Assembly (NCBI GenBank): GCA_021787535.1 | Contig: JAJYLR010000001.1 | Span: forward strand, 83,648 to 147,647 | Length of the DNA: 64,000 nucleotides | DNA from: a bacterium | GTDB taxonomy: Bacteria > Patescibacteriota > CPR2 > UBA1875 > JAJYID01 | Direction: 5' to 3' | In this document: piece by piece, positions 5,649-62,783 of the stretch | How the letters are laid out: every line of letters starts with the position of its first letter | Numbering within the stretch: the stretch's first letter is position 1 | The notes under the pieces: model-generated | Database searches by the model: none | What the model was told of the DNA's origin: nothing | What the model saw: the letters and a program-made list of their open reading frames with translations, nothing else | Program-made: the position numbers and the translations under genes

Positions 5649-5671
5649 AAGCTAAACAGCCAAACAAATTA

Positions 5672-34037: not shown

Positions 34038-34048
34038 GAGGAGATAAT

Positions 34049-34705
34049 ATGGCAGATGTTTATTTTAAAGATCGAGAAGATGCCGGGCGGAGGTTGACTG
34101 AGAAGTTAATTCAATACAAGGGTCAAAATCCGGTTGTTTTGGCTTTGCCGAGGGGTGGAGTTGTTCTTGGTGCAGAAGTTGCCGGGGTATTAAACTGCCC
34201 GTTAGACCTCGTAATTCCCAGAAAAATCGGCCATCCGATAAATCCGGAGTATGCTATCGCCGCTGTGACCGAAGGCGGGGCGCTTGTGGCAAATGAGAGC
34301 GAAGTTGCCACGGTTGATCCGGAATGGTTTGAACGAGAAAAAGCGGTCCAGATTGCCGAAGCCAAAAGGCGGCGGAGGGTTTACTTGAAAGACAGAAAGG
34401 CAGTAGATTTAACCGGTAAAACAGCTATTATCATCGATGACGGTATTGCCACGGGCCTGACTATGATGGCTGCAATTTCCGAGGTTAAGGCGAAAAATCC
34501 TGTCAAAATCATCATTGCCGTACCGGTAGCGCCGGCTGATATTTACCACAGAATTAGCCAAGAAGTTGACGATTTTGTTGCCATTGACGCGCCGGAGTAT
34601 TACCTGGGTTCGGTGGGCGCTTATTATCAGAAATTCCCGCAGGTGAGCGATGAGGAAGTGGTCGGGATTTTGTACCAAAATCTCAGGAAAACAAATAACA
34701 ATTAA
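34049..34705 (+). CDS. Phosphoribosyltransferase (type I PRTase fold)
   Basis: The PRPP-binding motif TAIIIDDGIATGLTMMAAI. The size is 218 aa. Confidence 0.7.
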   Translation: MADVYFKDREDAGRRLTEKLIQYKGQNPVVLALPRGGVVLGAEVAGVLNCPLDLVIPRKIGHPINPEYAIAAVTEGGALVANESEVATVDPEWFEREKAVQIAEAKRRRRVYLKDRKAVDLTGKTAIIIDDGIATGLTMMAAISEVKAKNPVKIIIAVPVAPADIYHRISQEVDDFVAIDAPEYYLGSVGAYYQKFPQVSDEEVVGILYQNLRKTNNN

Positions 34706-37678: not shown

Positions 37679-37800
37679 AGAAAAGAGTAAAATAAGAATG
37701 ACTAATTACCAATATCTAATAACCAATCAATTCTAAAATTTAAAAATTAATTAATTGAAAATTGACTGGAAATTGGGACTTGAAAATTAGAAATTAAGGT

Positions 37801-37848
37801 TAAGGGATTCCTCGGCTTGTCGCTACCGCGAAGTCGCTCGGAATGACA
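37801..37848. repeat. Palindromic element type C, inverted copy of 20657-20703, upstream of ppsA
   Basis: gggattcctcggcttgtcgctaccgcgaagtcgctcggaatgacaaa is the reverse complement of the 20.66-kb copy, with 1-2 differences. Confidence 0.8.
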
Positions 37849-37863
37849 AAAACGGAGGGTTGA

Positions 37864-40395
37864 ATGAGTAAGAATATACTTTGGTTTAAAGAAGTCGGGA
37901 AAGACGACGGAGCAAGGGTTGGCGGTAAGGGTGCAAATCTTGGTGAGATGTTTAGTGCCGGTCTCCCGGTGCCGAACGGTTTTATCGTCACGGCGCAGGC
38001 TTACTTTGATTTTCTGGATCATACCGGGCTCAAGGCAAAGATTGCAGAAGCGCTTGAAGGCTTAAATGTTGAGGATTCCAAGGATCTGCAAGCGAGAGCG
38101 GAAAAGGTGCAGAGTTTAATAAAGAAGGCTGATTTCCCCCAGGACTTAGCTAATGAAATTACCAAAAATTACCACAAGCTTTCTGAAGAAGGCCAAAAGG
38201 AAAAGGGAAGGAGCAAAAAAGAAGATTCCGGTCAAGCCGGAATGACGGAAGATTCCCCCAATACCCAATACCCAATACCCAATACAGATCGACTGGATTC
38301 CCGCCTGCGCGGGAATGACAAGGCGGGCGTATATGTGGCTGTTCGTTCGAGCGCGACGGCCGAGGATTTGGCTGATGCGTCATTTGCCGGCCAGCAGGCG
38401 ACATACCTGAACATTCTTGGCGATATTCCTGTTTTGCATGCGGTTTTAAAATGCTGGGCGTCGCTCTTTGAAGCCAGAGCTATTTATTATCGCGAAGACA
38501 AAGGGTTTGACCAGCTGGAAGTGGGTATTGCAGTGCCGGTGCAGAAAATGGTCAACTCCGAAAAAGCGGGAGTTATGTTTACCATTGATCCTACAAATAA
38601 CGACATGGAGCATATTTCCATCGAAGCGGCTTACGGGCTTGGCGAAGTGGTTGTTCTGGGCGCCGTTACCCCGGATCGTTATCTGATTGATAAAAAAACC
38701 AGGCAAGTGACCGACAAGGAAATTCACAAACAGACTTGGATGCTAACCCGCGAAGGCGGCAATGCCGATACGGATAACACGGAAGACATCTCAAAGAATG
38801 GCGTCCCCGTACCGGAGGATAAGCAAGGATTGCAAAAGCTGAGCGATGACGAAATCTCACAGCTTACCGATCTGGCTTTGAAAATTGAGAAGCATTACGG
38901 CAAACCGCAAGACACAGAGTGGGCGGTCGAGGGCGGAAAAGTTTACATGACCCAGTCGCGACCGATAACGACATTGCCAAGTAAAGATGATCAGGCAGGA
39001 ATGGATTCCGGACAAGCCGGAATGACAAATGAAGGGCAGGATATTTCCGAGGCCAAAGTGATATTAAAAGGTTCGGCGGCATCAGTCGGGATGGCCGGGG
39101 GACCGGTAAAGATCATTCATTCGCCGAGCGAGATAGACCAGATCTTGGACGGCGATGTTTTGGTCACAGAAATGACCACCCCGGATTTCGTGCCGGCTAT
39201 GAAGAGGGCTTCGGCTATCGTTACTGATGAAGGCGGACGGACCTGCCATGCGGCCATTGTTTCAAGAGAACTTGGTATTCCTTGCGTTGTCGGGACTGAG
39301 ACAGCTACAACTACGCTTAAGGATTACCCGAAAGTAACCGTCGATGGCAAAAGCGGCGCGGTTTATGAAGGTAAGGTTAAATCTCAATCGGATTCTGGAC
39401 AGGATTCTGGACAAGCCAGAATGACGAGCTCAGAGCCAGCGCCGATAACTGCCACGAAAATTTATGTCAACTTGGGAGAACCGGAACTGGCCGAGAAAGT
39501 AGCGGCTCGCGACGTCGATGGGGTGGGCTTGCTGCGCGCTGAGTTCATTATCATGGAGTCCATCGGCGAACATCCCAAGAAAATGATCAAGGAAGGGCGC
39601 CAAGAGGAATATATTACAAAACTAGCCGAAGGACTGGAAACATTTGCCCGGGCCTTTGATCCAAGACCTGTTGTTTATAGGGCTACTGATTTTAAGACTA
39701 ACGAATATCGAGGGCTAAAGGGCGGAGAAGAGTTCGAGCCCGAGGAAGACAATCCGATGATCGGCTATCGCGGCTGCTTCAGATACTTAAAAGATCCGGA
39801 AGAATTTTCATTGGAGCTTGAGGCGATTAAAAAAGTGCGCCAAAACCACAGAAATCTCCACCTGATGATTCCCTTTGTTCGCCGCACCGATGAGTTTCAA
39901 AAAGTTAAAGCAATGGTCGAAAAGAGTGGATTAAATAAAGAGAGCGACCCCGACTTTAAACTTTGGATTATGGTGGAGGTGCCATCGGCTGTTATCGAAA
40001 TAGAAAAGTTCTGCCAGATGGGCATCGACGGCGTGTCAATCGGCTCAAATGACCTGACCCAGCTGACTTTGGGATTAGATCGGGATTCAAATCTTGTGGC
40101 AGAGGAGTTTGATGAGCGAAACGATGCCGTCCAATGGATGATTAAAAGAACGGTGGAAACATGCAAAAAATACGGCGTTACTTGCTCGATCTGCGGCCAG
40201 GCGCCAAGCGTTTATCCCGAAGTAGCGCAGAAAATGGTGGAGTATGGCACCACATCCATTTCCGTAAACCCCGATATGATTGAGAGCACGCGCAAACTGG
40301 TGGCGCAGGTTGAAGAGAAGATTTTGATGAATGAAATGAGCGCAGTTCAGGCGAAATTGTCTGAATTGGAACAAAAGATAGAGACAAATGAGTAA
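37864..40395 (+). CDS. ppsA: Phosphoenolpyruvate synthase (pyruvate, water dikinase)
   Basis: N-terminal ATP-grasp VGGKGANLGEM, phosphohistidine domain GGRTCHAAIVSRELGIPCVVG, and a C-terminal PEP-utilising domain SICGQAPSVYPE...SVNPD. A ggaggg RBS is present. It contains three in-frame repeat-element insertions. Confidence 0.85.
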   Translation: MSKNILWFKEVGKDDGARVGGKGANLGEMFSAGLPVPNGFIVTAQAYFDFLDHTGLKAKIAEALEGLNVEDSKDLQARAEKVQSLIKKADFPQDLANEITKNYHKLSEEGQKEKGRSKKEDSGQAGMTEDSPNTQYPIPNTDRLDSRLRGNDKAGVYVAVRSSATAEDLADASFAGQQATYLNILGDIPVLHAVLKCWASLFEARAIYYREDKGFDQLEVGIAVPVQKMVNSEKAGVMFTIDPTNNDMEHISIEAAYGLGEVVVLGAVTPDRYLIDKKTRQVTDKEIHKQTWMLTREGGNADTDNTEDISKNGVPVPEDKQGLQKLSDDEISQLTDLALKIEKHYGKPQDTEWAVEGGKVYMTQSRPITTLPSKDDQAGMDSGQAGMTNEGQDISEAKVILKGSAASVGMAGGPVKIIHSPSEIDQILDGDVLVTEMTTPDFVPAMKRASAIVTDEGGRTCHAAIVSRELGIPCVVGTETATTTLKDYPKVTVDGKSGAVYEGKVKSQSDSGQDSGQARMTSSEPAPITATKIYVNLGEPELAEKVAARDVDGVGLLRAEFIIMESIGEHPKKMIKEGRQEEYITKLAEGLETFARAFDPRPVVYRATDFKTNEYRGLKGGEEFEPEEDNPMIGYRGCFRYLKDPEEFSLELEAIKKVRQNHRNLHLMIPFVRRTDEFQKVKAMVEKSGLNKESDPDFKLWIMVEVPSAVIEIEKFCQMGIDGVSIGSNDLTQLTLGLDRDSNLVAEEFDERNDAVQWMIKRTVETCKKYGVTCSICGQAPSVYPEVAQKMVEYGTTSISVNPDMIESTRKLVAQVEEKILMNEMSAVQAKLSELEQKIETNE
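38221..38325. repeat. Composite in-frame insertion in ppsA: type A half-element (gattccggtcaagccggaatgac), (CCCAATA)x4 heptamer, and type B element (ggattcccgcctgcgcgggaatgac)
   Basis: Read directly from the sequence. It is translated as EDSGQAGMTEDSPNTQYPIPNTDRLDSRLRGNDKAG. Confidence 0.85.
39003..39028. repeat. Type A half-element (ggattccggacaagccggaatgacaa) in frame in ppsA
   Basis: Translated as DSGQAGMT. Confidence 0.8.
39391..39425. repeat. Type A half-element with a 12-bp internal duplication (gattctggacag-gattctggacaagccagaatgac) in frame in ppsA
   Basis: Translated as SDSGQDSGQARMT. Confidence 0.8.
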
Positions 40396-40565
40396 TTAAG
40401 AATTTCTAATTTCTATTGAAGTCCCAATTAAAGAATTTAAAAATTTAGACATTGATTGGAAATTGTGAATTAGAAATTGAAAATTGAGCCAGCTAAAAGT
40501 TTGGATTTAAACAAGTAAAAAGCAAAAATCATCCGTTGTAAATTAAGTTTACTAGAAGGAAACCC

Positions 40566-41246: not shown

Positions 41247-42547
41247 AGATAAAAAATATAAAAGCAAATGAAATACTGGATTCACGGGGCAATCCCACCG
41301 TTTCTACCGAGATAGAGTTGGAAAACGGCATAATTTCTCATGCATCGGTTCCCAGCGGGGCGTCGACCGGTATTCATGAGGCGCATGAGCTGCGTGACGG
41401 CGACATGAAACGTTTTGACGGCAAAGGAGTCTTAAAGGCCTGTCAAAACATTGAGCAGATTATACAGCCGGAAATTAAAAAAATTGACATTGAAAATCAG
41501 GCGGAAATCGATAGTAAAATGTGCGAGCTGGACGGCACAAAAAACAAGGAAAAACTCGGAGCAAATGCTATTTTAGCGGTTTCGATCGCGGCTCTTAGGG
41601 CTCATGCCGCACATAACGGTAAAGAGCTGTATGAGATTATCGGCGAGCTTTACGGATTTCATGATTTTCGCCTTCCCAAGCCCTTGTCGGTTATTCTAGA
41701 AGGCGGCAAACATTCGGATTCTAATTGTGAAATCCAAGAATTCATGATTCAAATCGAGGAAGAGAAAATCGAGGAAAATTTACGGAAGATTGAACTTGTT
41801 TACCATTCGCTTGAGCAGGTGCTTGAAAGCCAGGGTAAAAATACCAACATTGGTTATGAAGGAGCATTTGGTCCGAATTTAACCTCGAACCGGGAGGGGC
41901 TTGATCTGATTATGCAGGCGATTGAAATGTCCGGATTAAAGCCCCGATATGATGTGCGTATTGCCCTCGATATTGCTGCCAGTGAATTTTACGATACTGA
42001 GAGCAGCCAATACCTTCTAAAAAGTGAGAACATTGCTCTGCGCGGGAGCCAGATGGTGGCTTACAATGAAGAGTTAGCGAGGGATTATCCTATCCTTTCT
42101 ATCGAAGACGGCATGTACGAGGATGACTGGGAAGGATGGCAAGCGCTCTATGAGCGTCTGGGCGATAAAATCATGCTGGTTGGCGACGATCTGTTTGTGA
42201 CCAACACCGAGCGCATTAGAAATGGCATTGATCGCCATGCTGCTAACGCAGTTTTGATTAAGCCGAATCAGATTGGTACAGTGACAGAAACCATCGAAGC
42301 TGTCAAAATGACCAAATTTGCCAGTTGGGAACCGATTGTTTCGCACAGGAGCGGAGAGACGAACGATAGTTTTATCGCCGATCTGGCCGTGGCGATCAGC
42401 GCCAAGTATATTAAAGCCGGCGCGCCGGCCAGAGGCGAGAGAGTAGCGAAATATAATCGGCTGATGGAAATTTCCTCTGTCATTCCCGCCCCCGATCGGG
42501 TCGAGGGTAAAGCTTCGGCGGGAATCCAGGAAGATAATTCAAAATGA
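41243..42547 (+). CDS. eno: Enolase
   Basis: ILDSRGNPTV N-terminus, the SHRSGETND signature and IKPNQIGT. Confidence 0.95.
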   Translation: MKIKNIKANEILDSRGNPTVSTEIELENGIISHASVPSGASTGIHEAHELRDGDMKRFDGKGVLKACQNIEQIIQPEIKKIDIENQAEIDSKMCELDGTKNKEKLGANAILAVSIAALRAHAAHNGKELYEIIGELYGFHDFRLPKPLSVILEGGKHSDSNCEIQEFMIQIEEEKIEENLRKIELVYHSLEQVLESQGKNTNIGYEGAFGPNLTSNREGLDLIMQAIEMSGLKPRYDVRIALDIAASEFYDTESSQYLLKSENIALRGSQMVAYNEELARDYPILSIEDGMYEDDWEGWQALYERLGDKIMLVGDDLFVTNTERIRNGIDRHAANAVLIKPNQIGTVTETIEAVKMTKFASWEPIVSHRSGETNDSFIADLAVAISAKYIKAGAPARGERVAKYNRLMEISSVIPAPDRVEGKASAGIQEDNSK

Positions 42548-47231: not shown

Positions 47232-49571
47232 TTGATTGAAAATTCAAAAATCGGAGGGGCTTTGCTAGATCGTTTCTTCAATCCAAAGAGTGTAGCTGTT
47301 ATCGGGGCTTCTCATCATAAAGAGAAGCTTGGGTTTTTGGTTTATGACAATATCAGAAAATACGGTTATAAAGGAAAACTTTATGGAGTGAATATCAAGG
47401 GCGGTTCCGCACATATTTCGCGTAAAAAATCAGGAGCGCAAAATATGTGCGGAATTCCACTCTACAAAACTGTAGGCGATATCCCTGGGCCGATAGATTT
47501 AGCTGTTGTGGTGATACCTGCGAAAGCTGTACCTCAAATAGTTAAAGATTGCGGTAAAAAAGGAATAACTTCTGTCATTATTATCTCGGCCGGGTTTTCT
47601 GAAACTGGAGCAGAAGGCAAAAAGTTAGAGGAAAAAATTGCCGATTTGTCACATAAATACGGTATCAGAATCTTGGGGCCGAACTGTCTCGGCATCATCG
47701 ACTCTTGGAGCAAAATGAACGCCTCTTTTGCCGAAAGTATGCCGGACAAGATGAAGATTTCTCTTCTTTCCCAGTCAGGAGCCATCTGCACGGCTATTTT
47801 AGACTGGGCCAATAGCGAAGAAATCGGTTTCTCCAGATTTATTTCTTTGGGCAATAAGCTTGATATCGATGAAAATGATGTCTTGGCTTATCTAGCCCGT
47901 GACACAAAAACCAAAGTTGTCCTGGCATATCTCGAAAGCATTGCCGATGGCCAGAAATTTATGGATAATGCTAGAAATCTTGCCTTGAAAAAGCCATTTA
48001 TCATGGTGAAGTCAGGCCGAACCAGCGAAGGCGCCAAAAGCATCTCTTCTCATACGGGCAGTATTGCCGGGTCGGATATTGTTATCGATACCGCTCTTCG
48101 CCAGAGCGGAGTGATACGGGCTGAGAGCTTAGAGGACCTCTTTGATCTGGCAAAAATATTTGCCTTTTCACCGGAAATGAAAGGCAAGAACGTTGCTGTT
48201 ATTTCAAATGCCGGCGGTCCGGCAGTTATGCTTGCCGATACGATTGGTCAAAGCCGCTTAAAGCTGGCTAAGTTTGAGCCAAAAACCCGTAAAATTCTAG
48301 AAGAGACATTGCCTCCTGAAGCTGCGACTCATAATCCTGTAGACGTCATCGGTGATGCCAGAGCCGATCGTTATGAAACTGCTACTTGCGAGGTTTTAAA
48401 AGATGAAAATGTTGATGCGGCCATAGTTGTTTTAACACCCCAAGTTATGACAGAGATTGAAGCGACAGCTAAAGTCATTAACAAGGCAAAAAAGTACGGA
48501 AAACCTTTGGCGGTATCTTTTATTGGCGGAGAAAAAGTCGGAGATGGCAGGAAAATTCTCGAAGACTTTGAAATACCTTCATATGAGTTTCCGGAGAGAG
48601 CGATCAAAGCGCTAGAAGCACTATTTGAGTACTATGAATTTAAGAGACACTATGGTCTTTGTCATTCCGACTGCCACCACGTGAGTTGCAAGCGGAGGAA
48701 TCCCTTAAAGAATAGCCAATTTCCAATAACCAATGACCAATCAAGCTCTAATAATCAGATGTCAAACAAAGGTGGTCATTCTGGGGACGGCAGGACCCCG
48801 GAATCTAATACAGATAAGGATTCTGGACAGGTCAGAATGACGAACAACAGGCAAAAGGTATCTGAAATTATCGGACCGGTATTTAACCGGCGCCAAAAGC
48901 TTATCACAGACGGAAGTTCGAGCGCTTTTGATGTTTTTGACGCCTATGGTATCAGCACTATCAAAAGAGCATATGGTCTGGGACTAAAGGATTTGAAAAA
49001 GAAATCGGAAGAACTGGGGTTTCCGCTTGTTGCGAAGACTTGCGCCGAAGGCGTTTTGCACAAAACGGATATTGGCGGAGTCAAGTTGGGTATGAGAGAT
49101 GAAAGCGAACTGCAAAAAGCGTATTTTTCAATTTGTAATAAAGTGCGAAAAGCTGGTTTCGAGGAGGGTTCGGATCGGGTTGACATTTATAAACAAGAAG
49201 AGGACGGCGTCCAAATATTTCTGGGCGCAAAAAAGGATTCCAGTTTTGGACCGCTCATAATTTTTGGTTTAGGCGGAATATTCGTCGAGGCGCTTAAAGA
49301 TTTTTCATATAGAATCGCGCCGGTTACGCATACCGAGGCCAAGAGAATGATCGGCGAAATAAGATCGCAGAAAGTTCTAAACGGTTTTCGGGGCATGCCG
49401 GAAGTTGATCGGGACAAAGTGGCAGATGCAATCGTTGGTTTGTCCCAGCTTATGCTCGACTTCCCGGAAATCAAAGAAGTAGATATTAATCCCTTAATGG
49501 CAACGGATAAAAAATGCGTTGCCATAGACGGAAAAATAATTTTGGACTTAGAAGTAGACCATGGTTTCTAA
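47232..49571 (+). CDS. Acetyl-CoA synthetase (ADP-forming), fused alpha/beta type. The real start is probably the TTG at 47265, which has a GGAGG RBS.
   Basis: The CoA-binding N-terminus FFNPKSVAVIGAS, succinyl-CoA-synthetase-like flavodoxin domains and a C-terminal ATP-grasp. A ~60-aa repeat-element insertion sits in the inter-domain linker. Confidence 0.85.
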   Translation: MIENSKIGGALLDRFFNPKSVAVIGASHHKEKLGFLVYDNIRKYGYKGKLYGVNIKGGSAHISRKKSGAQNMCGIPLYKTVGDIPGPIDLAVVVIPAKAVPQIVKDCGKKGITSVIIISAGFSETGAEGKKLEEKIADLSHKYGIRILGPNCLGIIDSWSKMNASFAESMPDKMKISLLSQSGAICTAILDWANSEEIGFSRFISLGNKLDIDENDVLAYLARDTKTKVVLAYLESIADGQKFMDNARNLALKKPFIMVKSGRTSEGAKSISSHTGSIAGSDIVIDTALRQSGVIRAESLEDLFDLAKIFAFSPEMKGKNVAVISNAGGPAVMLADTIGQSRLKLAKFEPKTRKILEETLPPEAATHNPVDVIGDARADRYETATCEVLKDENVDAAIVVLTPQVMTEIEATAKVINKAKKYGKPLAVSFIGGEKVGDGRKILEDFEIPSYEFPERAIKALEALFEYYEFKRHYGLCHSDCHHVSCKRRNPLKNSQFPITNDQSSSNNQMSNKGGHSGDGRTPESNTDKDSGQVRMTNNRQKVSEIIGPVFNRRQKLITDGSSSAFDVFDAYGISTIKRAYGLGLKDLKKKSEELGFPLVAKTCAEGVLHKTDIGGVKLGMRDESELQKAYFSICNKVRKAGFEEGSDRVDIYKQEEDGVQIFLGAKKDSSFGPLIIFGLGGIFVEALKDFSYRIAPVTHTEAKRMIGEIRSQKVLNGFRGMPEVDRDKVADAIVGLSQLMLDFPEIKEVDINPLMATDKKCVAIDGKIILDLEVDHGF
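48661..48842. repeat. Composite in-frame insertion in the acs linker: type C variant, a CCAAT-type heptamer stretch, and a full type A element (gtcattctggggacggcaggaccccggaatc-N13-gattctggacaggtcagaatgac)
   Basis: Read directly. It is translated as CHSDCHHVSCKRRNPLKNSQFPITNDQSSSNNQMSNKGGHSGDGRTPESNTDKDSGQVRMT. Confidence 0.85.
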
Positions 49572-50037: not shown

Positions 50038-51141
50038 GTGGCAACTCAAACTAAAACTAAAACGGTTTTAATGACCGGGAATCAAGCGGTGGTGAAAGCG
50101 GCTTTGGCTGTCGGTGCTGAGATGTTCAGCGGTTATCCGATAACGCCGACTACTGAAATTCTGACCGAATGGTCAAAAGCGGCCGAAAATAATAAAGATC
50201 TCATATTTTTGCAGACCGAGGATGAGCCGGCGGCCGGCTTTGTGATGATTGGCGGAGTTTCCATGGGCAAAAAGGCTTGGACGGCGACAGCCGGCGTCGG
50301 GCACGTTCTGATGCAGGATCCGCTCTCTATGGCAGAAGCTATGAGAATCCCGACGGTGACTTATATCGGCCAGCGCGGCGGTCCCTCAACCGGCACAGTG
50401 ATCTATTCCCAGCAAGAGCTGAATCTGGCTCGGATGGGCGGAAACGGCGAAGGCCTTCGCATCGTCTTTGCGCCTTCGAACCTGCAAGAACTCTACGATC
50501 TGACCATTAAGGCATTTAATGTAGCTTGGAAATACCGGTTTCCGACATTTATTCTATCCGACGGATATCTTGCCAAAACATATGGAGAAATTGAGCTTTG
50601 GCAGCCAAACAAATCGGAAATCGTGCCGACCGAAAGTTTCTTTTTGAATCCCAAAACAAGTCCGAACAATATCAGAAACTGCTACTCTATGGAGGTTGAG
50701 CTTTATGACCAACTGCTCAAAGACTTTGCCGATTATGCCAAAATGTCAGAGAAAGTTGAAGAAAGCGAGCTACTTGGCGACAAGAAGACAAATCTTTTAG
50801 TTTGCGCCTGGGGTGCGGTAGGAAACTCGGCTAAAACAGCGCTTAAGGCACTGGAAAAACAAAACATTTATTTTAAACTTTTCCGTCCGATTACTCTTAG
50901 GCCGTTTCCGGCAAAAGATCTGCAAAAAGCGGCGGAAGGAGTGACGGATATCCTCATTTTAGAGTCAGCAAACGGGCAGTTTGGCCGCATTGTGCGAGAA
51001 TCTTTGTATGGCACGACCGAAGCCGAAGTGCATCGCCTGTACAAACCGGCTATGGGCATCATGCCGGAAGAAATTCAAGCCAAAGTTAAGGAAGTATTTA
51101 AATTGGAGGATTCTGGACAAGCCAGAATGACGCAATCATGA
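50038..51141 (+). CDS. 2-oxoacid:ferredoxin oxidoreductase alpha subunit (pyruvate/2-ketoisovalerate type)
   Basis: LMTGNQAVVKAALAVGAEMFSGYPITPTTEI matches the PorA/KorA N-terminus. The C-terminal tail EDSGQARMTQS is encoded by a type A half-element. Confidence 0.85.
   Translation: MATQTKTKTVLMTGNQAVVKAALAVGAEMFSGYPITPTTEILTEWSKAAENNKDLIFLQTEDEPAAGFVMIGGVSMGKKAWTATAGVGHVLMQDPLSMAEAMRIPTVTYIGQRGGPSTGTVIYSQQELNLARMGGNGEGLRIVFAPSNLQELYDLTIKAFNVAWKYRFPTFILSDGYLAKTYGEIELWQPNKSEIVPTESFFLNPKTSPNNIRNCYSMEVELYDQLLKDFADYAKMSEKVEESELLGDKKTNLLVCAWGAVGNSAKTALKALEKQNIYFKLFRPITLRPFPAKDLQKAAEGVTDILILESANGQFGRIVRESLYGTTEAEVHRLYKPAMGIMPEEIQAKVKEVFKLEDSGQARMTQS
51108..51131. repeat. Type A half-element (ggattctggacaagccagaatgac) forming the 3' end of the OFOR alpha gene
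   Basis: Identical to the copy at 39403-39425. Confidence 0.85.
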
Positions 51142-51896
51142 TAAGCCCTCGATTTGCTTCGACAATTAAACCTTCTTCAAAACCATCGAACTTCTGTCCA
51201 GGATGTGGCCATTCCATAATCCTCAAGAATTTAGGGCAGATAATATCAGATCTCAAAATAGAAAAAAAGACGGTATTTCCCATAGACATCGGCTGTTCGC
51301 TTCTGGCTTGGGATTTTTTTGATGTTGATACTTTCCAGACACATCATGGCCGGACCACGGCAGCAGCAGTGGGACAGAAAAGGGCGCGTCCGGATGCTAT
51401 TATCCTCGCTTACATGGGCGACGGCGGAGGGTATGCCATCGGACTGCAAAACTTAGTTCATGCCTGCTATCGCAATGAGAATATTACGGTGATTTTGGTC
51501 AACAATACTATGTTTTCCATGACCGGAGGACAGATGGCGCCGACATCTTTGCCGCATGAGGTAACATCATCATCGCCGGACGGTGCATTTACCCAAGACA
51601 AACCCTTCTACGGTCCGGAAATGCTGGCTCGCGAAGCCCATGACGGCGCATATATCGCCAGAGCGGCCGTCTCAAATCCGGGGCAGATGAAAGCTTATAT
51701 GCAAAAAGCTATCCAAAATCAGATAGACGGCAAAGGTTTTTCATTTGTCGAAGTGCTTTCGTACTGTCCGACGAACTGGAAGACAAACGCCGAACAAACA
51801 ATTAGGTTTTTAGAAAAAATGAAAGAAACGTTTCCGGTAGGAGAGATTAAAAATCCTTCTCTGTCATCCCGAGCCCATTCGACAAGCTCAGGATAA
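51138..51896 (+). CDS. 2-oxoacid:ferredoxin oxidoreductase beta subunit (TPP-binding)
   Basis: FCPGCGH near the N-terminus, and a GDGG thiamine-diphosphate-binding motif. The start overlaps the alpha-subunit stop. The C-terminal 15 aa and the stop are encoded by a type C element. Confidence 0.85.
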   Translation: MISPRFASTIKPSSKPSNFCPGCGHSIILKNLGQIISDLKIEKKTVFPIDIGCSLLAWDFFDVDTFQTHHGRTTAAAVGQKRARPDAIILAYMGDGGGYAIGLQNLVHACYRNENITVILVNNTMFSMTGGQMAPTSLPHEVTSSSPDGAFTQDKPFYGPEMLAREAHDGAYIARAAVSNPGQMKAYMQKAIQNQIDGKGFSFVEVLSYCPTNWKTNAEQTIRFLEKMKETFPVGEIKNPSLSSRAHSTSSG

Positions 51897-53249: not shown

Positions 53250-53343
53250 GATCGTTCCCCAGTTTTTCTTTTCACATGGATAGCGAGCCACCGGGTTCAT
53301 ACTGCCGCTCTGACAAGGGCGGCAGTCTTCTTTTAAAAAAGTG

Positions 53344-53371
53344 TTGACAAAAATTTTGTATATGATATAAT
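53344..53371 (+). promoter_or_regulatory. Strong sigma70 promoter with an extended -10 (TTGACA-16-TGaTATAAT)
   Basis: ttgaca at 53344-53349 and tgatataat at 53363-53371. It drives the GC-rich non-coding unit downstream. Confidence 0.6.
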
Positions 53372-53377
53372 GATTTT

Positions 53378-54098
53378 CATTGCACTTTGAGAATATTCGC
53401 GGTTTATACAGCTGTAATTGGTTTCTAGATTAGAGATCAGTTATAGCTGTATAAGCAAAAGTTTCCTCTCGGGTGCCACTGGAAAGTGGGACGAGGGGAC
53501 CCTCTGTACTCCCAGGGGGATACATGAGCAACCCGGAGATTGGGGAAGAGGTTGTTCTGAAAGGGAGCCGAATATAGCAGCCCCAACTGCGTATGTCGGG
53601 CCAGGTCCTCTGGTTACTCCATGAAAAACCTCATGTGGAGGTCAATGATAGAAGGAGGATATCCTGATCTAGTTTTACTGGTCTTCTATCGTTGCATCGT
53701 TAAAAGGAGATATGCACGGCAACCGCAATCTCGCCCCGAAGGAGGGAATAAAGCGGTACCAGTTGCAACTGGACGTGCGTGGGTTCTCTATTCAGTCAGG
53801 AGAATAGTTAATCTACGCTTTCAAAGATTCCCAAGGGCTTGGCTTTTATTGAAGTTCCCTCCGATGGCGGAAGGAGAGCGCTGCTCTCATATTTCTTGCC
53901 GCCCAGTGCGCCACATATGTTGGGGTACTGATCTGTGTGAGGGGGTCGGAGCTATTGGGGTCGCGGTTCTCCCGTCCTCCTTAAGGAGGCTTAGAACGAA
54001 CCGAAGTCGGTAGGGTGCCCAAATCCGGAGCCCTGAATACGCACCCTGCCCAACTAGTAAGGGACGCCTCCAATTGGAGGCGTCCCGATTTCTTTTTG
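53378..54098 (+). ncRNA. Candidate large structured ncRNA (~0.7 kb) of unknown class: promoter-to-terminator unit, GC-rich, no credible ORF
   Basis: ~52% GC against a ~40% background. Multiple GNRA-capped hairpins (ctggaaagtgg, gttctgaaaggg). Long-range complementarity cgggtgcc (53470s) with gcaccctg (54040s) would close the molecule. It ends in a perfect hairpin plus U-run. The overlapping ORFs are Arg/Pro/Trp-rich junk. Bacterial RNase P P4 motifs and tmRNA ends were looked for and not found. Confidence 0.3.
54061..54098 (+). terminator. Rho-independent terminator
   Basis: gggacgcctcc-aatt-ggaggcgtccc (an 11-bp perfect stem) followed by gatttcttttt. Confidence 0.8.
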
Positions 54099-54139
54099 TA
54101 TACTTACTCTCACTTCCCAAATCCGCTATAATAGAATGC

Positions 54140-56647
54140 ATGGCGGATTTTTTAGATGATTTAAATGAGATGCAGAAAGAGGCGGTCAAAACTACCGAAG
54201 GGCCCCTTCTTATTTTAGCCGGGGCCGGCAGCGGCAAGACCAAAGCCCTGACTTACCGCATCGCTTACTTAATTAGCGAAAAAAATGTCGATCCGGAGCG
54301 GATTTTGGCCGTGACTTTTACCAATAAAGCGGCCAAGGAAATGGTCTCGAGAGTTGAGAAACTACTCTCGAGAAATAACCAATTTCCAAGTCCCAATTTC
54401 CAATCAATTTTCAATGATCAAAATTCAAAAAGTCTGGATTCCCGCCTTCGCGGGAATGACAAGGAGGGAAAGGGATCCGTCGACTCCCATTCGGCTGCGC
54501 TCAGGGCAGGCTTTCGCGAAGTCGCTCAGAATGACAGAAAAGGGGAGCAAGAAGTCTGTCGAAATGACCCACGCACCGAAAATGGTGCGGGGCAAGCAAT
54601 ACAGAATACCGAATACTCAATACAGCATACTGTCACCGGCCGCAGGCCTGTCATGGGTACTTTTCACTCTGTTTGCGTCAAAATTCTACGGCGGGAGATA
54701 GGCCATCTCGGCTATAAATCGAGCTTTACCATTTATGACTCGGGCGACTCCAATAGGGCGGTAAAGATTGCCATGAAAGAACTCTCTATTGATGAGAAGA
54801 AATTCAATCCCAGAACAATACAAAATTACATCTCCTCGGCAAAAAATGAGCTGATTGGCGAGAAAGAGTACGCTGCGCTCGTCAACGGCTATATCCAGGA
54901 AATGGCTTCCAAAGTGTACTTTGAATACCAAAAAATTCTTAAAAACGCCCATGCGCTGGACTTTGACGATCTGATTATGAAGACGGTAGAAATCTTCCAA
55001 AAATTTCCAGAAATCTTGGAGAAATATCAGAAGCAATTCAAATATATTCATATAGATGAGTATCAGGACACAAACCACGCCCAGTATGTTTTTTCAAAAC
55101 TGCTGGCAGCTAAACATGAAAATATCTGTGTGGTGGGGGACGACTGGCAAAGTGTTTATGCATTTCGCGGGGCGAACTTCCAGAACATCCTAGATTTCGA
55201 GAAGGATTATCCGAATGCAAAAGTGGTCAAACTTGAGCAAAATTATAGATCAACAAAAACCATTTTGGATGCTGCCCATCATATTATCAAAAAGAATGAA
55301 AACCGAAGCGACAAAGAGCTCTGGACTGAAAACATTCTGGGTGTTCCTATCCTGACATTTGAGGCAAAAGACGAGGTAGATGAAGGAAGATTTATCATTC
55401 AGGAAATTTCGAGTTCAGCCCGCGATCTTTCTGATTTTGCTGTTTTATACCGCACAAATGCCCAGTCAAGAAGCCTTGAAGAACAGTTTCTAAAAGCCGG
55501 CATGAAGTACAGGATTTTCGGAGGAGTGAGGTTCTATGAGCGAAAGGAAATTAAAGATATTATCGCATACCTCAGGTTCATTCAGAATCCAAATGACTGG
55601 GTGGCGCTCGAGCGGATTATCAATGTTCCGTCGAGAGGAATAGGGGCAGCTAGTTTGAAAAAAATAAAGGAATTTTTTTCAAATAATTTGCAATTTCCAA
55701 TTTCCAATTTTCAATCAAATTCCAATAACCAAATTCCAAACAAAAGCCGTCATTTTGGGGACGATAGGACTCCAGAATCAAACTCGGATAAGGATTCTGG
55801 TCAAGCCAGAATGACGGAAGGTAAGGGTGACTTGGTTGGTATACTGGAAAAAGTGAAATTCAGCAATATTCTTTCCGGCAAAGCGCTAGCCGGATTTAAG
55901 TCATTTATGAAAGCCATTATTGAGCTCGAAGATCAGAAAGATAAATTGCAACTGGTGAAGTTCATCGATCAGGTTATGAAAAAAACCGGCTACTATGATT
56001 CGCTTGATGACAAAACTATCCAAGGTGAAGAAAGGCAGGAAAACCTGAAAGAGCTTTTGTCGGTAGCAGAGGAATTTGTCAAGGATAGAGAAGACTTCGG
56101 TCTTGAGGATTTTCTCGAGGAAGTGGCTCTTATTTCCGATATTGATAACTACTCGGAAGACGAGCAGTCCGTGGCGCTTATGACCTTGCATTCGGCCAAA
56201 GGGCTCGAGTTTCCCTGTGTTTTCATTGCCGGGATGGAAGAGGGGATCTTTCCGCATTCTCGTTCACAGCTTGATATCGAAGAAATGGAAGAAGAGCGCA
56301 GATTGGCATATGTCGGTATCACAAGAGCAAAAGAAAGAGCGTATCTGGTTAGCGCTCGCAGGCGTCTTCTCTATGGAAACTATCAGTCCAATCCGGCGTC
56401 GAGATTCATCTCTGATATTCCCGGTGAGCTCAAGAAAGACATTAACCGGTTTGAAACGTCATTGGACTCAAAGATTTATGAAAAGCAAATCCCGCAGTTT
56501 GCTCCCGGAGAAAAAGTTCTGCATGACAAGTTTGGCGTAGGCATAGTCCAAGACGTCAAAGGCGATGAGATGACTGTATCTTTTGAAAAGGTGGTGGGTC
56601 TCAAAGTTCTCTCTACCATTTACGCGCCGATTGAGAAGATAAGATGA
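54140..56647 (+). CDS. uvrD: ATP-dependent DNA helicase UvrD/PcrA (SF1). The ORF-track start at 54074 lies inside the upstream terminator; the ATG at 54140 is preferred.
   Basis: Motif I LLILAGAGSGKTKALTYRIAYLI, then GTFHSVC, DEYQDTN and later SF1 motifs. tataat at 54127-54132 sits 7 nt before the ATG, implying a leaderless mRNA. There are two large in-frame repeat insertions. Confidence 0.85.
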   Translation: MADFLDDLNEMQKEAVKTTEGPLLILAGAGSGKTKALTYRIAYLISEKNVDPERILAVTFTNKAAKEMVSRVEKLLSRNNQFPSPNFQSIFNDQNSKSLDSRLRGNDKEGKGSVDSHSAALRAGFREVAQNDRKGEQEVCRNDPRTENGAGQAIQNTEYSIQHTVTGRRPVMGTFHSVCVKILRREIGHLGYKSSFTIYDSGDSNRAVKIAMKELSIDEKKFNPRTIQNYISSAKNELIGEKEYAALVNGYIQEMASKVYFEYQKILKNAHALDFDDLIMKTVEIFQKFPEILEKYQKQFKYIHIDEYQDTNHAQYVFSKLLAAKHENICVVGDDWQSVYAFRGANFQNILDFEKDYPNAKVVKLEQNYRSTKTILDAAHHIIKKNENRSDKELWTENILGVPILTFEAKDEVDEGRFIIQEISSSARDLSDFAVLYRTNAQSRSLEEQFLKAGMKYRIFGGVRFYERKEIKDIIAYLRFIQNPNDWVALERIINVPSRGIGAASLKKIKEFFSNNLQFPISNFQSNSNNQIPNKSRHFGDDRTPESNSDKDSGQARMTEGKGDLVGILEKVKFSNILSGKALAGFKSFMKAIIELEDQKDKLQLVKFIDQVMKKTGYYDSLDDKTIQGEERQENLKELLSVAEEFVKDREDFGLEDFLEEVALISDIDNYSEDEQSVALMTLHSAKGLEFPCVFIAGMEEGIFPHSRSQLDIEEMEEERRLAYVGITRAKERAYLVSARRRLLYGNYQSNPASRFISDIPGELKKDINRFETSLDSKIYEKQIPQFAPGEKVLHDKFGVGIVQDVKGDEMTVSFEKVVGLKVLSTIYAPIEKIR
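54370..54655. repeat. ~285-bp composite in-frame insertion in uvrD between helicase motifs I and Ia: heptamer stretch, type B element, an inverted type C variant, and AATAC-type repeats
   Basis: Translated as a ~95-aa insert: SRNNQFPSPNFQSIFNDQNSKSLDSRLRGNDKEGKGSVDSHSAALRAGFREVAQNDRKGEQEVCRNDPRTENGAGQAIQNTEYSIQHTVTGRRPV. The type B copy at 54436-54463 matches 20736-20763. Confidence 0.85.
55684..55814. repeat. Composite in-frame insertion in uvrD: (AATTTCC)-type heptamer stretch plus a full type A element (gtcattttggggacgataggactccagaatc-N13-gattctggtcaagccagaatgac)
   Basis: Translated as NLQFPISNFQSNSNNQIPNKSRHFGDDRTPESNSDKDSGQARMT. Confidence 0.85.
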
Positions 56648-59051: not shown

Positions 59052-59289
59052 CGTCCAAGGCGTTTTCTATCGCTTTAGCGCGAAGATGGAGGCGGAAAAG
59101 CTGGGAATAACAGGTTTTGGTGAAAATGAGTCTGATGACAGTGTCCTTATAATCGCAGAAGGCGAACAGGAAGCGTTGGAAAAATTTAGCCGGTGGTTGA
59201 AAGAAGGCCCGCCGATGGCTGAAGTTGAAGATGTACAGATCGAGGAAGATGATTATACTGGAGAATTTAAAGGTTTCGAGGTCCGGTAA
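59020..59289 (+). CDS. acyP: Acylphosphatase
   Basis: The VTGDVQGVFYRFSAKMEAEKLGITGF acylphosphatase signature. It overlaps the rsmA 3' end in another frame, and the exact start is uncertain. Confidence 0.65.
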   Translation: MRRWRIKVTGDVQGVFYRFSAKMEAEKLGITGFGENESDDSVLIIAEGEQEALEKFSRWLKEGPPMAEVEDVQIEEDDYTGEFKGFEVR

Positions 59290-60011
59290 TGCTGTATGTA
59301 GTTTCTACTCCGATTGGTAATCTGGATGACATCACTCTTCGCGCGCTCGAAACCTTAAAGAATGTCGATCTTGTTGCCTGCGAAGATACGCGCCATACAA
59401 AAATCCTGCTTGATAAGCATAGTATCCCTTTTTGTCATTCTGGGGACGGTAGGACGCCAGAATCTGATTCTGGGCAAGCCAGAATGACGAGCCGGTCACG
59501 GCTCGTCAGCTATCATCAGCATTCAGGGTCAGTAAAAACCGAGAAAATTCTAACGATGCTGAAAGATGGCAAAGATGTTGCTCTTGTGACTGATGCCGGT
59601 ACGCCCGGTATTTCTGATCCTGGCAGTAAGTTAGTTGCCGAAGCAGCAGCAGATGGTATCGAGATTACATCCATTCCGGGCCCTGCCGCCTTTGTGAGTG
59701 CTTTAAGCGTTTCTGGATTTGACACTTCTGAATTTATTTTTATCGGATTTCTTCCTCACAAAAAGGGACGGCAAACAAAGCTGAAAGAAATAAGCGGTGA
59801 AAAGCGGACAGTTGTGTTGTATGAATCGGTACATCGGATAAAAAAGTTGTTCGGAGAGCTGTCAGAAATTATTCCAAACAGAGAGATATGTGTTTGCCGT
59901 GAACTGACTAAGAAATTTGAAGAGATCTATCGTGGAAAACCATCAGAGCTCATGGATCAAATTATAGAAAAAGGAGAATTTGCGGTTGTTATAGGAGGCA
60001 GAAATGATTAA
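59289..60011 (+). CDS. rsmI: 16S rRNA C1402 2'-O-methyltransferase (tetrapyrrole-methylase fold)
   Basis: LYVVSTPIGNLDDITLRALETLKNVDLVACEDTRHT matches the RsmI N-terminus. It contains one in-frame type A insertion. Confidence 0.85.
   Translation: MLYVVSTPIGNLDDITLRALETLKNVDLVACEDTRHTKILLDKHSIPFCHSGDGRTPESDSGQARMTSRSRLVSYHQHSGSVKTEKILTMLKDGKDVALVTDAGTPGISDPGSKLVAEAAADGIEITSIPGPAAFVSALSVSGFDTSEFIFIGFLPHKKGRQTKLKEISGEKRTVVLYESVHRIKKLFGELSEIIPNREICVCRELTKKFEEIYRGKPSELMDQIIEKGEFAVVIGGRND
59434..59488. repeat. Full type A element, short form (gtcattctggggacggtaggacgccagaatc-tgattctgggcaagccagaatgac), in frame in rsmI
   Basis: Translated as CHSGDGRTPESDSGQARMT. Confidence 0.85.
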
Positions 60012-61326: not shown

Positions 61327-62778
61327 ATGTCTAAAAAGTTTTATATAGATACTTCTATTCCGTATGCAAACGGAAATCCCCACATAGGACATCCTCTGGA
61401 TCCTTTATACGGTGATGTTCTAGCAAGATATTATCGCGCTAACGGTTATGATGTTTTTTTTCTTGTCGGCTTGGACGAGAATGGCCAAAGCGTTTACAAC
61501 AAAGCCAAATGCGCGGAAGTCCCGGTTCAGGAGTTTACTGAGAATGTGCGCAAGAAATTCATAGAAATGCATGAAAAGTTAAATGATTCTTACGATGGAT
61601 TTATCAGGACTACCGATAAAAAACTGCATTGGCCGACGGCGCAGGAGATATGGAAAAGGGCTGAGAAGGCCGGTGATATTTACAAAAAAAACTATCAAGG
61701 GCTTTACTGTGTCGGTTGTGAAGAGTTCAAGCTGGAAAGAGATTTGGTTGATGGCAAATGTCCGGATCACCAAACCAAACCGGAGAAAATCGAGGAGGAA
61801 AACTATTTCTTCAAACTCTCAAATTACCAAAAATTTTTACAGGATTTGTTTGATAAAAATCCGGATTTTGTTTATCCGAAAAACAAATATAACGAAGCTT
61901 ATCAAATCATCAAAGGTGGGCTGGAAGACGTAAGTATTTCCCGGCCGAAGGAAAGGCTTCCGTGGGGTGTACCCGTGCCGGGTGATGACAGCCACGTTAT
62001 GTATGTCTGGTTTGACGCGCTGACAAATTACTTATCCGGTATTGGGTTTACCTCAGACAAAAAGAAATTCGAAAGGTATTGGCCGACTGACCTAAACATC
62101 GTTGGCAAAGACAACAACAAATGGCATTCTATTCTCTGGCCGGCAATTTTAAAGTCGGTAGGACTTCAGTTGCCTAAGAAAGTTTTTGTTCATGGGCACG
62201 TTCTTGGCAAAGGCAATGTAAAGATGAGCAAAACGATAGGCAACGTAGTCGATCCGATGGAGATGATTGATAAATATGGGGCTGATGCTTTTCGATATTT
62301 TATTCTTGCCAAAATCCCAGTGGATTCTGATGGCGCCTTTGATGAAGATCATTTCAGGGAAGTTTATAATTCAGAGCTTTCAAATAAGTTGGGTAATCTT
62401 TTACAGAGAACAATTTCAATGATTAATAAGTATAATGTAAAAATTTCTGACAAGGAGATCGACAGGTTTGGCGGAAGCATAGACGAAAAGATCGGGAATT
62501 TAGATTTTAATGGGGCTTTGCGTTCAGTTATTAGAATGGTAGAGGTGGCAAATGAAGAAATTGATAGTAAAAGACCTTGGGAATTGGCAAAATCTGGTAA
62601 AACGAGAGAGCTAAATGCATTATTAAGTGAAATCTATTGGATATTGAATTCAGTAGCCAAAAATATCTATCCTTTCATGCCCGACACCAGTAAAAAAATG
62701 AAAAAACAGCTTAAAAATTTAAAACCGGTACCTTTGTTTCCGAGGATGGAGAAAGATTCCCGATCGGGTCGGGAATGA
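61327..62778 (+). CDS. metG: Methionyl-tRNA synthetase (class I, compact form)
   Basis: The HIGH motif ANGNPHIGHPL, the KMSKS motif VKMSKTIGN, and the zinc-knuckle region CVGCEEF...CPDHQ. Confidence 0.9.
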   Translation: MSKKFYIDTSIPYANGNPHIGHPLDPLYGDVLARYYRANGYDVFFLVGLDENGQSVYNKAKCAEVPVQEFTENVRKKFIEMHEKLNDSYDGFIRTTDKKLHWPTAQEIWKRAEKAGDIYKKNYQGLYCVGCEEFKLERDLVDGKCPDHQTKPEKIEEENYFFKLSNYQKFLQDLFDKNPDFVYPKNKYNEAYQIIKGGLEDVSISRPKERLPWGVPVPGDDSHVMYVWFDALTNYLSGIGFTSDKKKFERYWPTDLNIVGKDNNKWHSILWPAILKSVGLQLPKKVFVHGHVLGKGNVKMSKTIGNVVDPMEMIDKYGADAFRYFILAKIPVDSDGAFDEDHFREVYNSELSNKLGNLLQRTISMINKYNVKISDKEIDRFGGSIDEKIGNLDFNGALRSVIRMVEVANEEIDSKRPWELAKSGKTRELNALLSEIYWILNSVAKNIYPFMPDTSKKMKKQLKNLKPVPLFPRMEKDSRSGRE

Positions 62779-62783
62779 CAAGC
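62755..62783. repeat. Type B variant element (gattcccgatcgggtcgggaatgacaag) forming the last codons and the TGA stop of metG
   Basis: The ORF ends ...EKDSRSGRE, followed by a TGA that lies inside the gggaaTGAc terminus of the element. Confidence 0.8.

Follow-up and report, generated by a model that had tools for sequence, protein, structure and literature searches.

A gene for a PcrA/UvrD-type helicase with two large in-frame inserts lies in the 64-kb stretch of bacterial DNA analysed here (contig JAJYLR010000001.1; the whole stretch is referred to below as the window). Based on the intactness of the helicase core, the purifying selection acting on it and the recurrence of the insert modules in other genes, we consider it likely that the gene encodes a working enzyme whose two most permissive loops have been colonised by small non-autonomous repeats, namely YGTC-tagged hairpins and heptamer arrays, which together form mosaics similar to the Neisseria intergenic mosaic elements (NIME).

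The helicase gene and its two inserts

Matches to the Pfam domains UvrD-helicase (4e-86) and UvrD_C (8e-77), a C-terminal PcrA/UvrD Tudor domain, and a best solved relative in Geobacillus PcrA (1PJR, phmmer E=1e-199) indicate that the product is a PcrA/UvrD-type SF1A helicase, whose ATP-dependent 3'-5' translocation and unwinding activity we infer from purifying selection. The motif set by which SF1A membership is recognised (Q, I, Ia, Ib, II, III, IV, V and VI) is intact. The open reading frame (ORF) at 54074-56647 is open over 857 codons from a TTG start; we place the beginning of the gene proper at the ATG at 54140, from which residues are numbered here and which leaves 835 codons plus the stop, because the orthologs begin at the equivalent of its MADFL and the conserved promoter/leader falls inside the TTG extension. 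This leader lies directly upstream of the helicase, or is associated with it, in the related loci L003-L006 and L008. In L008 the leader (1827-1872) stands 2.1 kb upstream of the helicase, with a HEPN/nucleotidyltransferase (toxin-antitoxin-like) pair inserted between the two, and the intergenic region between Fer4 and pcrA forms a hot spot of accessory insertions. Synteny is seen in six loci, with genes for pyruvate:ferredoxin oxidoreductase (POR) and ferredoxin upstream and a DUF348-G5-transglycosylase gene downstream. The nearest named ortholog, labelled 'candidate division WS5' (taxid 2093353), is 73% identical, more remote ortholog matches come from CPR2, Howlettbacteria and Saccharimonadia, and the G+C content of the window is 42.5%. 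Using the SF1 motif names current for D. radiodurans UvrD (PMC3797037), the features of the gene are as follows:

54140..56647, plus strand: PcrA/UvrD-type SF1A helicase gene with both inserts (Pfam, PDB matches, ortholog starts, synteny)
54074..54139, plus strand: TTG extension of the ORF, probably untranslated (orthologous proteins lack it)
54089-54135, plus strand: conserved helicase promoter/leader (...CCGCTATAATAGA); ~90% identity in L003-L006 and L008
54218..54241, plus strand: motif I, AGAGSGKT, residues 27-34 (ortholog alignment)
54314..54343, plus strand: motif Ia, TFTNKAAKEM, residues 59-68, upstream of insert 1
54371..54637, plus strand: insert 1, 267 nt, residues 78-166, net +87 residues, a repeat mosaic predicted to be disordered (empty sites in L004-L006, pLDDT)
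54656..54670, plus strand: motif Ib, GTFHS, residues 173-177, downstream of insert 1 (ortholog alignment)
55679..55828, plus strand: insert 2, 150 nt, residues 514-563, net +47 residues, situated between two helices in a loop of domain 2B, predicted to be disordered (alignments, pLDDT)

The phmmer alignment with PcrA falls into three pieces (query residues 4-77, 172-514 and 569-834 against PcrA 8-81, 89-435 and 448-724), and the unaligned query stretches of ~94 and ~54 residues oppose 7 and 12 residues of PcrA. The same excess is seen against related genomes, in which the spacing from NKAAKEM to GTFHS is 17 residues (L004, L005 and L006) as opposed to 104 in the window, and that from RGIGA to LS[GA]K is 27 residues (L004 and L005) as opposed to 74. 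Insert 1 is placed after motif Ia and before motif Ib, in the alpha3-beta3 loop of domain 1A, where in the AlphaFold2 model it joins helix 62-78 to strand 171-173. Insert 2 joins helices 503-516 and 562-575 of the model and aligns approximately with residues 456-471 of mycobacterial UvrD1; as the 2B domain of UvrD1 comprises residues 404-585 (PMC13646824), the insert falls within 2B. The placement in loops rests on secondary structure together with sequence alignment to PcrA, UvrD and UvrD1.

Each insert can be broken down into hairpins and runs of heptamers, the runs being delimited with Tandem Repeats Finder (TRF):

54374..54433, plus strand: heptamer run 1, AT-rich, CCAATTT-like units (TRF); matches 37754-37788 (94%), 40451-40479 and 55691-55718
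54434..54464, minus strand: hairpin B, CTGGATTCCCGCCTTCGCGGGAATGACAAGG, 8-bp stem and 4-nt loop (54438-54457), TGTC tag on the minus strand; translated LDSRLRGNDK
54465..54543, plus strand: 'type C' half-element, AAGGGATCC...GCTCAGAATGACAG; matches 37827-37848 and the reverse of 20659-20678
54544..54597, plus strand: GC-rich block consisting of a GTCGAAATGAC end and then a hairpin with a 9-bp stem, CCACGCACC-GAAAAT-GGTGCGGGG (54569-54592); missing in the L007 insert
54598..54637, plus strand: heptamer run 2, built of AATACAG units that keep the register of the CATACSGG native to empty sites (TRF; alignment with L002, L003, L007 and L008)
55685..55746, plus strand: heptamer run of insert 2, AATTTCC / CAAATTC units (TRF); ~89% identity to the run in L008 and L002
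55747..55780, plus strand: CGTC-tagged hairpin CCGTCATTTTGGGGACGATAGGACTCCAGAATC, translated SRHFGDDRTPES; paralogs at 48775-48804 and 59434-59463
55791..55818, minus strand: CGTC-tagged hairpin GGATTCTGG-TCAAG-CCAGAATGACG, translated DSGQARMT; forms a tag-outward inverted dimer with 55747-55780

The copy of hairpin B at 38293-38323, in a pyruvate phosphate dikinase (PPDK)-like gene, shows 97% identity, and that at 20737-20762 shows 96%. The relatives of the type C half-element are the right half of GTCATCCCGAGC...GGGATCCCTT / AAGGGAT...TCGRAATGAC dimers, and the half-element itself occupies the same position in the same orientation in L007, L001 and L002. In insert 2 the predicted RNA fold pairs the outer ends of the two hairpins. 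The peptide stretches tied to the inserts include ...LLSRNNQFPSPNFQSIFNDQNSK... and ...DSGQARMTEGK.... Two of the three forward frames of insert 1 are free of stops, and a 115-aa ORF in the +2 frame (54354-54701, plus strand; ...WIPAFAGMT...) spans the whole of it; this ORF is repeat-derived and spurious, and exists because the repeats of insert 1 are poor in stop codons.

The initial annotation had recognised the 857-codon frame and both inserts, and its account of insert 1 as a composite of a type B palindrome, a type C palindrome and heptamers holds, with the hairpin block at 54544-54597 and the second heptamer run now added. The limits it gave (54370-54655 and ~95 residues for insert 1, 55684-55814 and ~44 residues for insert 2) give way to those listed above, and its location of insert 1 between motifs I and Ia was an error of naming, TFTNKAAKEM upstream of the insert being motif Ia and GTFHS motif Ib. 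Its expectation that structural comparison with PcrA/UvrD would put insert 1 in a loop of domain 1A agrees with the predicted alpha3-beta3 position.

Integrity of the gene and alleles at the two sites

All columns that are invariant across 74 orthologs, including those in motifs I, Ia, Ib, II, III, IV, V and VI, are intact in the window protein. By the Nei-Gojobori method, over 633 gap-free core codons, dN/dS is 0.05 (dS 1.14) for the window and L001, its closest relative and likewise insert-bearing, and 0.075 between L002, in which both sites are filled, and L005, in which both are empty. AlphaFold2, supplied with the 74-sequence alignment, returns a confident core (predicted template-modelling score, pTM, 0.70), and the predicted model has the four-subdomain fold 1A/1B/2A/2B as found in DNA complexes, superposing on PcrA-DNA (3PJR) with a template-modelling score, TM(target), of 0.88 and on UvrD-DNA-ADP.MgF3 (2IS6) with one of 0.89. 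The predicted local distance difference test score (pLDDT) drops below 50 at residues 83-166 and 519-562, which make up most of both inserts, and these are predicted to be disordered, floppy loops. Across the 74 orthologs length varies mainly at the two insert sites and in a C-terminal linker, and a few sequences show two smaller variable regions; at site 2, Saccharimonadia-like orthologs contain low-complexity inserts of 45-59 residues unrelated to the present ones, and at site 1 short heptamer-like peptides occur in distant orthologs. Since length varies at the same two sites across the orthologs, these are generic permissive loops.

Judging from these sequence comparisons, the gene is not decaying but is under strong purifying selection. 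The presence of two large foreign insertions in one gene, in a genome that tolerates many such, might have pointed to a young pseudogene still in frame by chance, and the initial annotation had weighed a slide toward pseudogenisation against the tolerance of large loops. The intact invariant residues, the dN/dS values and the predicted core support tolerance. We reject the decay of the gene as scarcely credible: the loss of conserved motifs was looked for and none was found relative to the 74 orthologs, dN/dS is 0.05 for two genes that both bear inserts and stand ~1.1 apart at synonymous sites (0.075 in the second comparison), the promoter/leader is conserved, the core folds confidently with TM scores of 0.88-0.89, and all 13 filled site instances, from eight genomes, are a multiple of 3 nt in length and free of stops.

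Comparison with sister genomes bears out the polymorphic presence and absence of each insert. Site 1 is empty in L004, L005 and L006 and site 2 in L004 and L005, the latter two loci being empty at both, while differing mosaics fill the sites of the window, L001, L002, L003, L007 and L008, and at site 2 also that of L006. Site occupancy is discordant with the neighbour-joining (NJ) tree of the core, ((L005,L004),L002), L006, ((L001,window),L003) with L007 and L008 outside, in that L002, filled at both sites, is nested with the empty L005 and L004. In L001, the sister of the window, the mosaic is another one, made up of a GTCATCCCGAGC...GGGATCCCTT / AAGGGAT...TCGAAATGAC dimer, which over its right half (~50 nt) is ~94% identical to the L002 copy by manual count from the alignment; an element of the same dimer type is also present at site 2 of L006. 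Intermediate arrangements are found at site 1, where L003 and L008 have heptamer arrays only, L007 has a hairpin block between a left (CAGAAYAAC-type) and a right (AATACNN-type) array, and the window and L002 have hairpins upstream of the same right-hand AATACNG array.

Several orthologs, namely P0012 (L007 4001-7675), P0010 (L008 4001-7417), P0027 and P0045, additionally contain an intein of ~363 residues (Hint/Intein_splicing), which sits in motif III between VGDDWQ and S. L007 and L008 thereby combine an intein with repeat mosaics at the same two loops, that is, two kinds of selfish element in one gene. Both kinds occur in the same helicase gene of the same clade without destroying it; the inteins differ in their size, in occupying the most conserved motif and in removing themselves, whereas the mosaics sit in the least conserved loops, are devoid of splicing domains and are presumably retained in the protein.

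Repeats across the window and in other lineages

Modules of the inserts match other sites in the window at 89-97% identity with E values of 3e-3 to 1e-9, and these matches therefore exceed chance. The CGTC hairpin is 93-96% identical to copies at 38224, 39401, 51107 and 59466, and the entire insert 2 has a 75-77% identical paralog at 48707-48848, within the gene for an ADP-forming acetyl-CoA synthetase (ACS). A simple detector of the form YGTC + ATTCYSGS stem + loop + tail recovers ~17 genuine hairpins in the 64 kb, 13 of them within ORFs, the coding fraction being 0.86. In the intragenic copies the stems are perfect or near-perfect and the variants compensatory (e.g. ATTCTGG/CCAGAAT versus ATTCCGG/CCGGAAT), and heptamer arrays of a similar kind are scattered through intergenic DNA as well (TRF). 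At least four other housekeeping genes in the window have the same elements in frame:

37864-40395: phosphoenolpyruvate (PEP) synthase/PPDK-like gene, with four in-frame hairpins and a CCCAATA run
47232-49571: ACS gene, with an in-frame insert at 48657-48846
59289-60011: RsmI-like methyltransferase gene, with in-frame hairpins/heptamers
14286-14717: RNase H gene, with in-frame hairpins/heptamers

The ACS insert is missing from the orthologs in L001, L003 and L004, and its absence from L001 makes it younger than the split between the window and L001. The helicase is one instance of a genome-wide habit.

These observations bear on whether the inserts could be of local origin, produced from native loop codons through replication slippage and expansion without any import of repeat DNA. 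Such an origin would sit well with the register that heptamer run 2 shares with the native CATACSGG of empty sites, with the heptamer arrays that alone fill site 1 in L003 and L008, and with the heptamer-like peptides of distant orthologs at that site. We nevertheless hold it to be very improbable for the inserts as a whole, given that copies of the hairpin modules with 90-97% identity lie in other genes and between genes, that one hairpin is identical across phyla (see below), that the whole of insert 2 is paralogous to the copy in the ACS gene, which ACS orthologs lack, and that similar heptamer arrays are dispersed in intergenic DNA.

The repeats also touch the boundaries of genes. Hairpin elements contain the C-terminal and/or stop codons of four genes, and the repeats therefore remodel gene ends too:

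42479-42525: element at the end of the enolase gene
51110-51131: element at the end of the gene for POR alpha (POR_N)
51863-51894: element at the end of the gene for the POR TPP-binding subunit (TPP_C)
62756-62779: element at the end of the methionyl-tRNA synthetase (MetRS) gene

At 20754-20800, 34030-34050 and 37841-37866 a hairpin end (GGAATGACA...) is found directly upstream of a ribosome-binding site and start codon, in front of the genes for TIM, a phosphoribosyltransferase and PPDK, respectively; from their position these hairpins probably belong to 5' untranslated regions.

In the plus-strand genes, from which the frame counts were taken, intragenic hairpins are always read in a hydrophilic open frame. 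One hairpin type is read as DSGQA(R/G)MT in all seven of its intragenic copies, hairpin B as LDSRLRGNDK in both of its copies although the WIPAFAGMT frame is also open, and the GTCATTCTGGGGAC... type as HSGDGRTPES in three of three although VILGTAGPRNL is open too. Together with the 13 in-frame, stop-free sites, this bias speaks for transcription and translation of the inserts together with the rest of the helicase, and against their being spliced or bypassed. Ribosomes of one yeast mitochondrion skip GC-rich palindromic inserts within genes ('byp' elements), and relatives of this very helicase gene carry a true intein, so one might ask whether the two inserts are likewise intervening sequences (intron, intein or bypassed segment) that are removed after transcription or translation. 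We give this almost no weight: the window protein lacks Hint/Intein_splicing domains in Pfam, the intein of L007 and L008 is in motif III and not at the insert sites, and the in-frame, stop-free and hydrophilic-frame character of all variants is a pattern expected only if they are translated. Rfam at gathering threshold found no intron and no other relevant family in the whole window, and tRNA or tmRNA genes were not found in it either.

In terms of sequence and anatomy the window hairpins match the class of the CGTC-tagged repetitive extragenic palindrome (REP) superfamily and dRS3. The CGTC REPs (Di Nocera et al. 2013) have their tag outside the stem, a stem of 8-9 bp, a loop of 4-5 nt and a 3-nt tail, occur predominantly as inverted dimers, include intragenic copies and have no known transposase (PMC3733652). 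The superfamily includes the Neisseria dRS3 and the Rickettsia elements RPE-4 and RPE-6, and REP-encoded residues are already known in UvrD/Rep helicases, namely residues 278-288 of RPE_2137 in R. palustris and 914-923 of Kole_1028 in K. olearia (PMC3733652). The window hairpins share the placement of a tetranucleotide tag outside the stem, the stem, loop and tail anatomy, the inverted dimers and the intragenic copies, with stems of 8-9 bp and, in most, loops of 3-5 nt; the CGTC tag is found on the hairpins of insert 2 and at 38225, 39404, 51110 and 59467. They depart from the superfamily in that many copies, hairpin B among others, are tagged TGTC, that a minority have loops of 9-27 nt, and that the helicase inserts comprise 47 and 87 residues as opposed to single hairpins of 10-11 residues at other positions in the listed helicases. 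Moreover, the association with heptamer arrays is absent from that description, and the candidate phyla radiation (CPR) lies outside the five phyla reported (PMC3733652).

Hairpin B provides a tie to dRS3, which is a 20-bp inverted repeat, ATTCCCNNNNNNNNGGGAAT, of the form ATTCCC-N8-GGGAAT (Bentley et al. 2007, PMC1797815): at 54438-54457 it reads ATTCCCGCCTTCGCGGGAAT, an exact fit to the definition, which other hairpin types of the window (ATTCTGG...CCAGAAT) do not fit. In Neisseria, intergenic arrays of dRS3 with spacers of the RS family constitute the NIME, which were described as specific to that genus and for which a hairpin-specific recombinase, or exchange with exogenous DNA, has been proposed as the mechanism (PMC1797815). 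The window mosaics are like NIME in the alternation of GC-rich hairpins with AT-rich spacers and in the variable content of arrays at syntenic positions, but unlike them in being intragenic and probably translated, in belonging to a distant lineage and in having heptamer arrays as spacers instead of RS families. We accordingly do not file them as NIME and, by analogy, regard them as NIME-like only in how they would work.

The hairpin is far from confined to the present lineage. In a scan restricted to one genome per species, at least 120 contigs (L009-L128) from very many bacterial phyla contain its 25-mer GGATTCCCGCCTKCGCGGGAATGAC without a mismatch. Among the matches listed are Neisseria lactamica, N. 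mucosa and many Proteobacteria, Bacteroidota, Chloroflexota, Planctomycetota and Nitrospirales, as well as Verrucomicrobiota, Acidobacteria, Spirochaetes and one contig labelled Nanoarchaeota. In the 148 copies listed the base following GAATGAC is G in 92 (CGTC tag) and A in 52 (TGTC), and 18 of 19 close pairs among them are tag-outward, 44-112 nt apart.

A further parallel is offered by the Rickettsia palindromic elements (RPE; Ogata et al. 2000, Science 290:347), which are described in passages of PMC10969869 and PMC3733652 as in-frame palindromes in housekeeping genes, RPE-4 and RPE-6 themselves being CGTC-tagged hairpins (PMC3733652). As with RPE, small palindromic repeats stand here in frame in many unrelated housekeeping genes, would contribute an extra peptide compatible with the fold and leave the host genes functional. 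The differences are that the host is a WS5/CPR-like uncultivated bacterium, linked to RPE only through the shared CGTC-REP class; that several short hairpins with heptamer arrays take the place of one element of ~100-150 bp with a conserved peptide; and that the same two sites of the helicase hold different mosaics in related genomes. The heptamer arrays of cyanobacteria known as short tandemly repeated repetitive (STRR) sequences are likewise said to be dispersed over the genome and to have small hairpin-like repeats nested within them. To our knowledge, in-frame mosaics inside core enzymes are not part of their typical description, and both unit sequences and phylum differ. Literature searches for such repeats in CPR/Patescibacteria returned nothing relevant among the papers listed.

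Divergence, growth of the mosaics and significance

The divergence of the inserts follows a course of its own. Between the window and L008 the core proteins are 77% identical and synonymous sites are saturated, with third-position identity of 0.3-0.57 in flanking blocks; in the 30-codon block over insert 2, by comparison, nucleotide identity is 0.86 and third-position identity 0.97, and amino acid identity (0.70) is below that of most flanking blocks although nucleotide identity is higher. The first ~100 nt of insert 2 are collinear and ~89% identical in the two loci. Insert 1 gives a similar picture against L007, where hairpin B and the type C half stand in the same order and orientation and third-position identity is 0.70-0.77 as against 0.4-0.6 in the flanks. 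As the identity of the inserts far exceeds that of flanking synonymous sites, the insert DNA must be either younger than the divergence of the genes, through re-insertion, exchange or conversion, or constrained as DNA or RNA. The codon-position comparison gives no sign of constraint at the protein level, and by this measure the inserts evolve as DNA and not as protein.

In light of this conservation, the inserts could conceivably have been co-opted and kept by selection, whether as hairpins that pause or stabilise the mRNA at the boundaries of domains, as recombination hot spots or as flexible protein-protein interaction loops in the regulatory 2B domain. The perfect or near-perfect intragenic stems with compensatory variants would be in keeping with this, as would the location of insert 2 in 2B, which is an autoinhibitory and partner-binding domain (PMC13646824), and the three hairpin ends that directly precede ribosome-binding sites elsewhere in the window. 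We judge co-option improbable all the same: L004 and L005 do without inserts and L001 has an unrelated mosaic at the same site under the same purifying selection, the amino acid identity of the insert is below that of most flanks, and the same modules lie in unrelated genes and in intergenic DNA. RNA folds of the whole inserts are, furthermore, no more stable than those of shuffled sequence (z -1.07 and -0.08), and in RNA folding only the individual hairpins matter, not the inserts as wholes. A related proposal, which we think rather unlikely but worth stating, is that the mosaics are kept 'young' by active hairpin-specific exchange (NIME-type recombination or re-insertion) in essential genes, with the PcrA loop being rewritten repeatedly with cross-species modules and the 25-nt hairpin marking a broad mobilisation machinery; in a variant of it, a cis-function in mRNA or DNA would do the conserving.

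Returning to the colonisation of permissive loops by non-autonomous repeats, which we favour, we posit that the mosaics grow stepwise, a heptamer array being established first and hairpins later entering it or being exchanged inside the array. Subsequent insertions would use the first as a landing pad, and such a landing pad would explain why the same two sites differ in content between related genomes. The hairpins would be moved or exchanged by a putative trans-acting, hairpin-specific recombinase or transposase, by analogy with the proposal for dRS3. Selection would then act as a filter, such that inside genes the only copies to survive are those which are a multiple of three in length, free of stops, read in the hydrophilic frame and located in loops.

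Several points weigh against this reading. Insert DNA at orthologous sites is ~82-89% identical despite saturated synonymous sites, for which neutral decay in situ is insufficient; such identity requires recent re-insertion or exchange, gene conversion, or constraint at the level of DNA or RNA. The right-hand heptamer run shares its register with the native CATACSGG, and part of the arrays could be due to local slippage. The DNA-level comparison spans nine orthologous loci and a simple NJ tree, in which gains are inseparable from precise losses. Finally, no transposase, recombinase or mobilising enzyme was recognised among the annotated ORFs of the window scanned for domains, and no PivNM/IS110-type gene was seen in the window. 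The DNA-level conservation of inserts at orthologous sites and the identity of the hairpin across phyla are unexplained by the reading in its current form.

Elsewhere in the window, a stretch of ~700 nt directly in front of the helicase (53330-54100, plus strand) is GC-rich and non-coding. Within this stretch are a sigma70-like TTGACA/TATAAT promoter (53344/53367), a perfect 26-bp hairpin (53402-53455) with compensatory changes in L001, and an intrinsic terminator at ~54060-54098; its predicted fold has an energy of -298.7 kcal/mol, the value for shuffled sequence being -241.9 +/- 8.8 (z=-6.5). L001 and L002 retain part of the stretch, and L003 and L004 lack it. Rfam at E<=1 gave no relevant match on 53250-54140, and pattern scans for homologs in metagenome and viral contigs gave none, or chance matches in unrelated coding DNA. 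The ORFs at 53621-54013 and 53887-54243 are probably spurious, and the stretch could represent either a hitherto undescribed structured RNA or a mobile insertion of non-coding DNA. On the minus strand, a cluster of genes for a DNA methylase, a Replic_Relax protein and a type IV coupling protein (TraG/VirD4-like) at 2254-10422 looks like the remnant of an integrated conjugative or mobilisable element. Two adjacent giant ORFs on the plus strand, 23163-28784 (1873 aa, no Pfam domain) and 28862-32731 (1289 aa, a pectate-lyase-like beta-helix), share ~80%-identical blocks of 300 nt and are probably paralogous surface proteins.

The phenomenon as such is already known from RPE and the CGTC REPs; the present case is unusually large and composite, and occurs in a host lineage for which such repeats have apparently gone undescribed. 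It supplies a multi-genome example, with empty, intermediate and filled alleles, of palindromic repeats spreading through coding DNA without killing the genes they enter. It also shows where PcrA/UvrD accepts 50-90 extra disordered residues, namely in the loop between motifs Ia and Ib and in a loop of 2B, which can guide engineering and help to interpret differences in length among SF1 helicases. For annotation it serves as a warning that such inserts, and the spurious ORFs across them (e.g. 54354-54701), are repeat-derived. Three testable signatures, the hydrophilic-frame filter, landing-pad growth and the conservation of inserts at the level of DNA, bear on how CGTC/dRS3 elements are mobilised.

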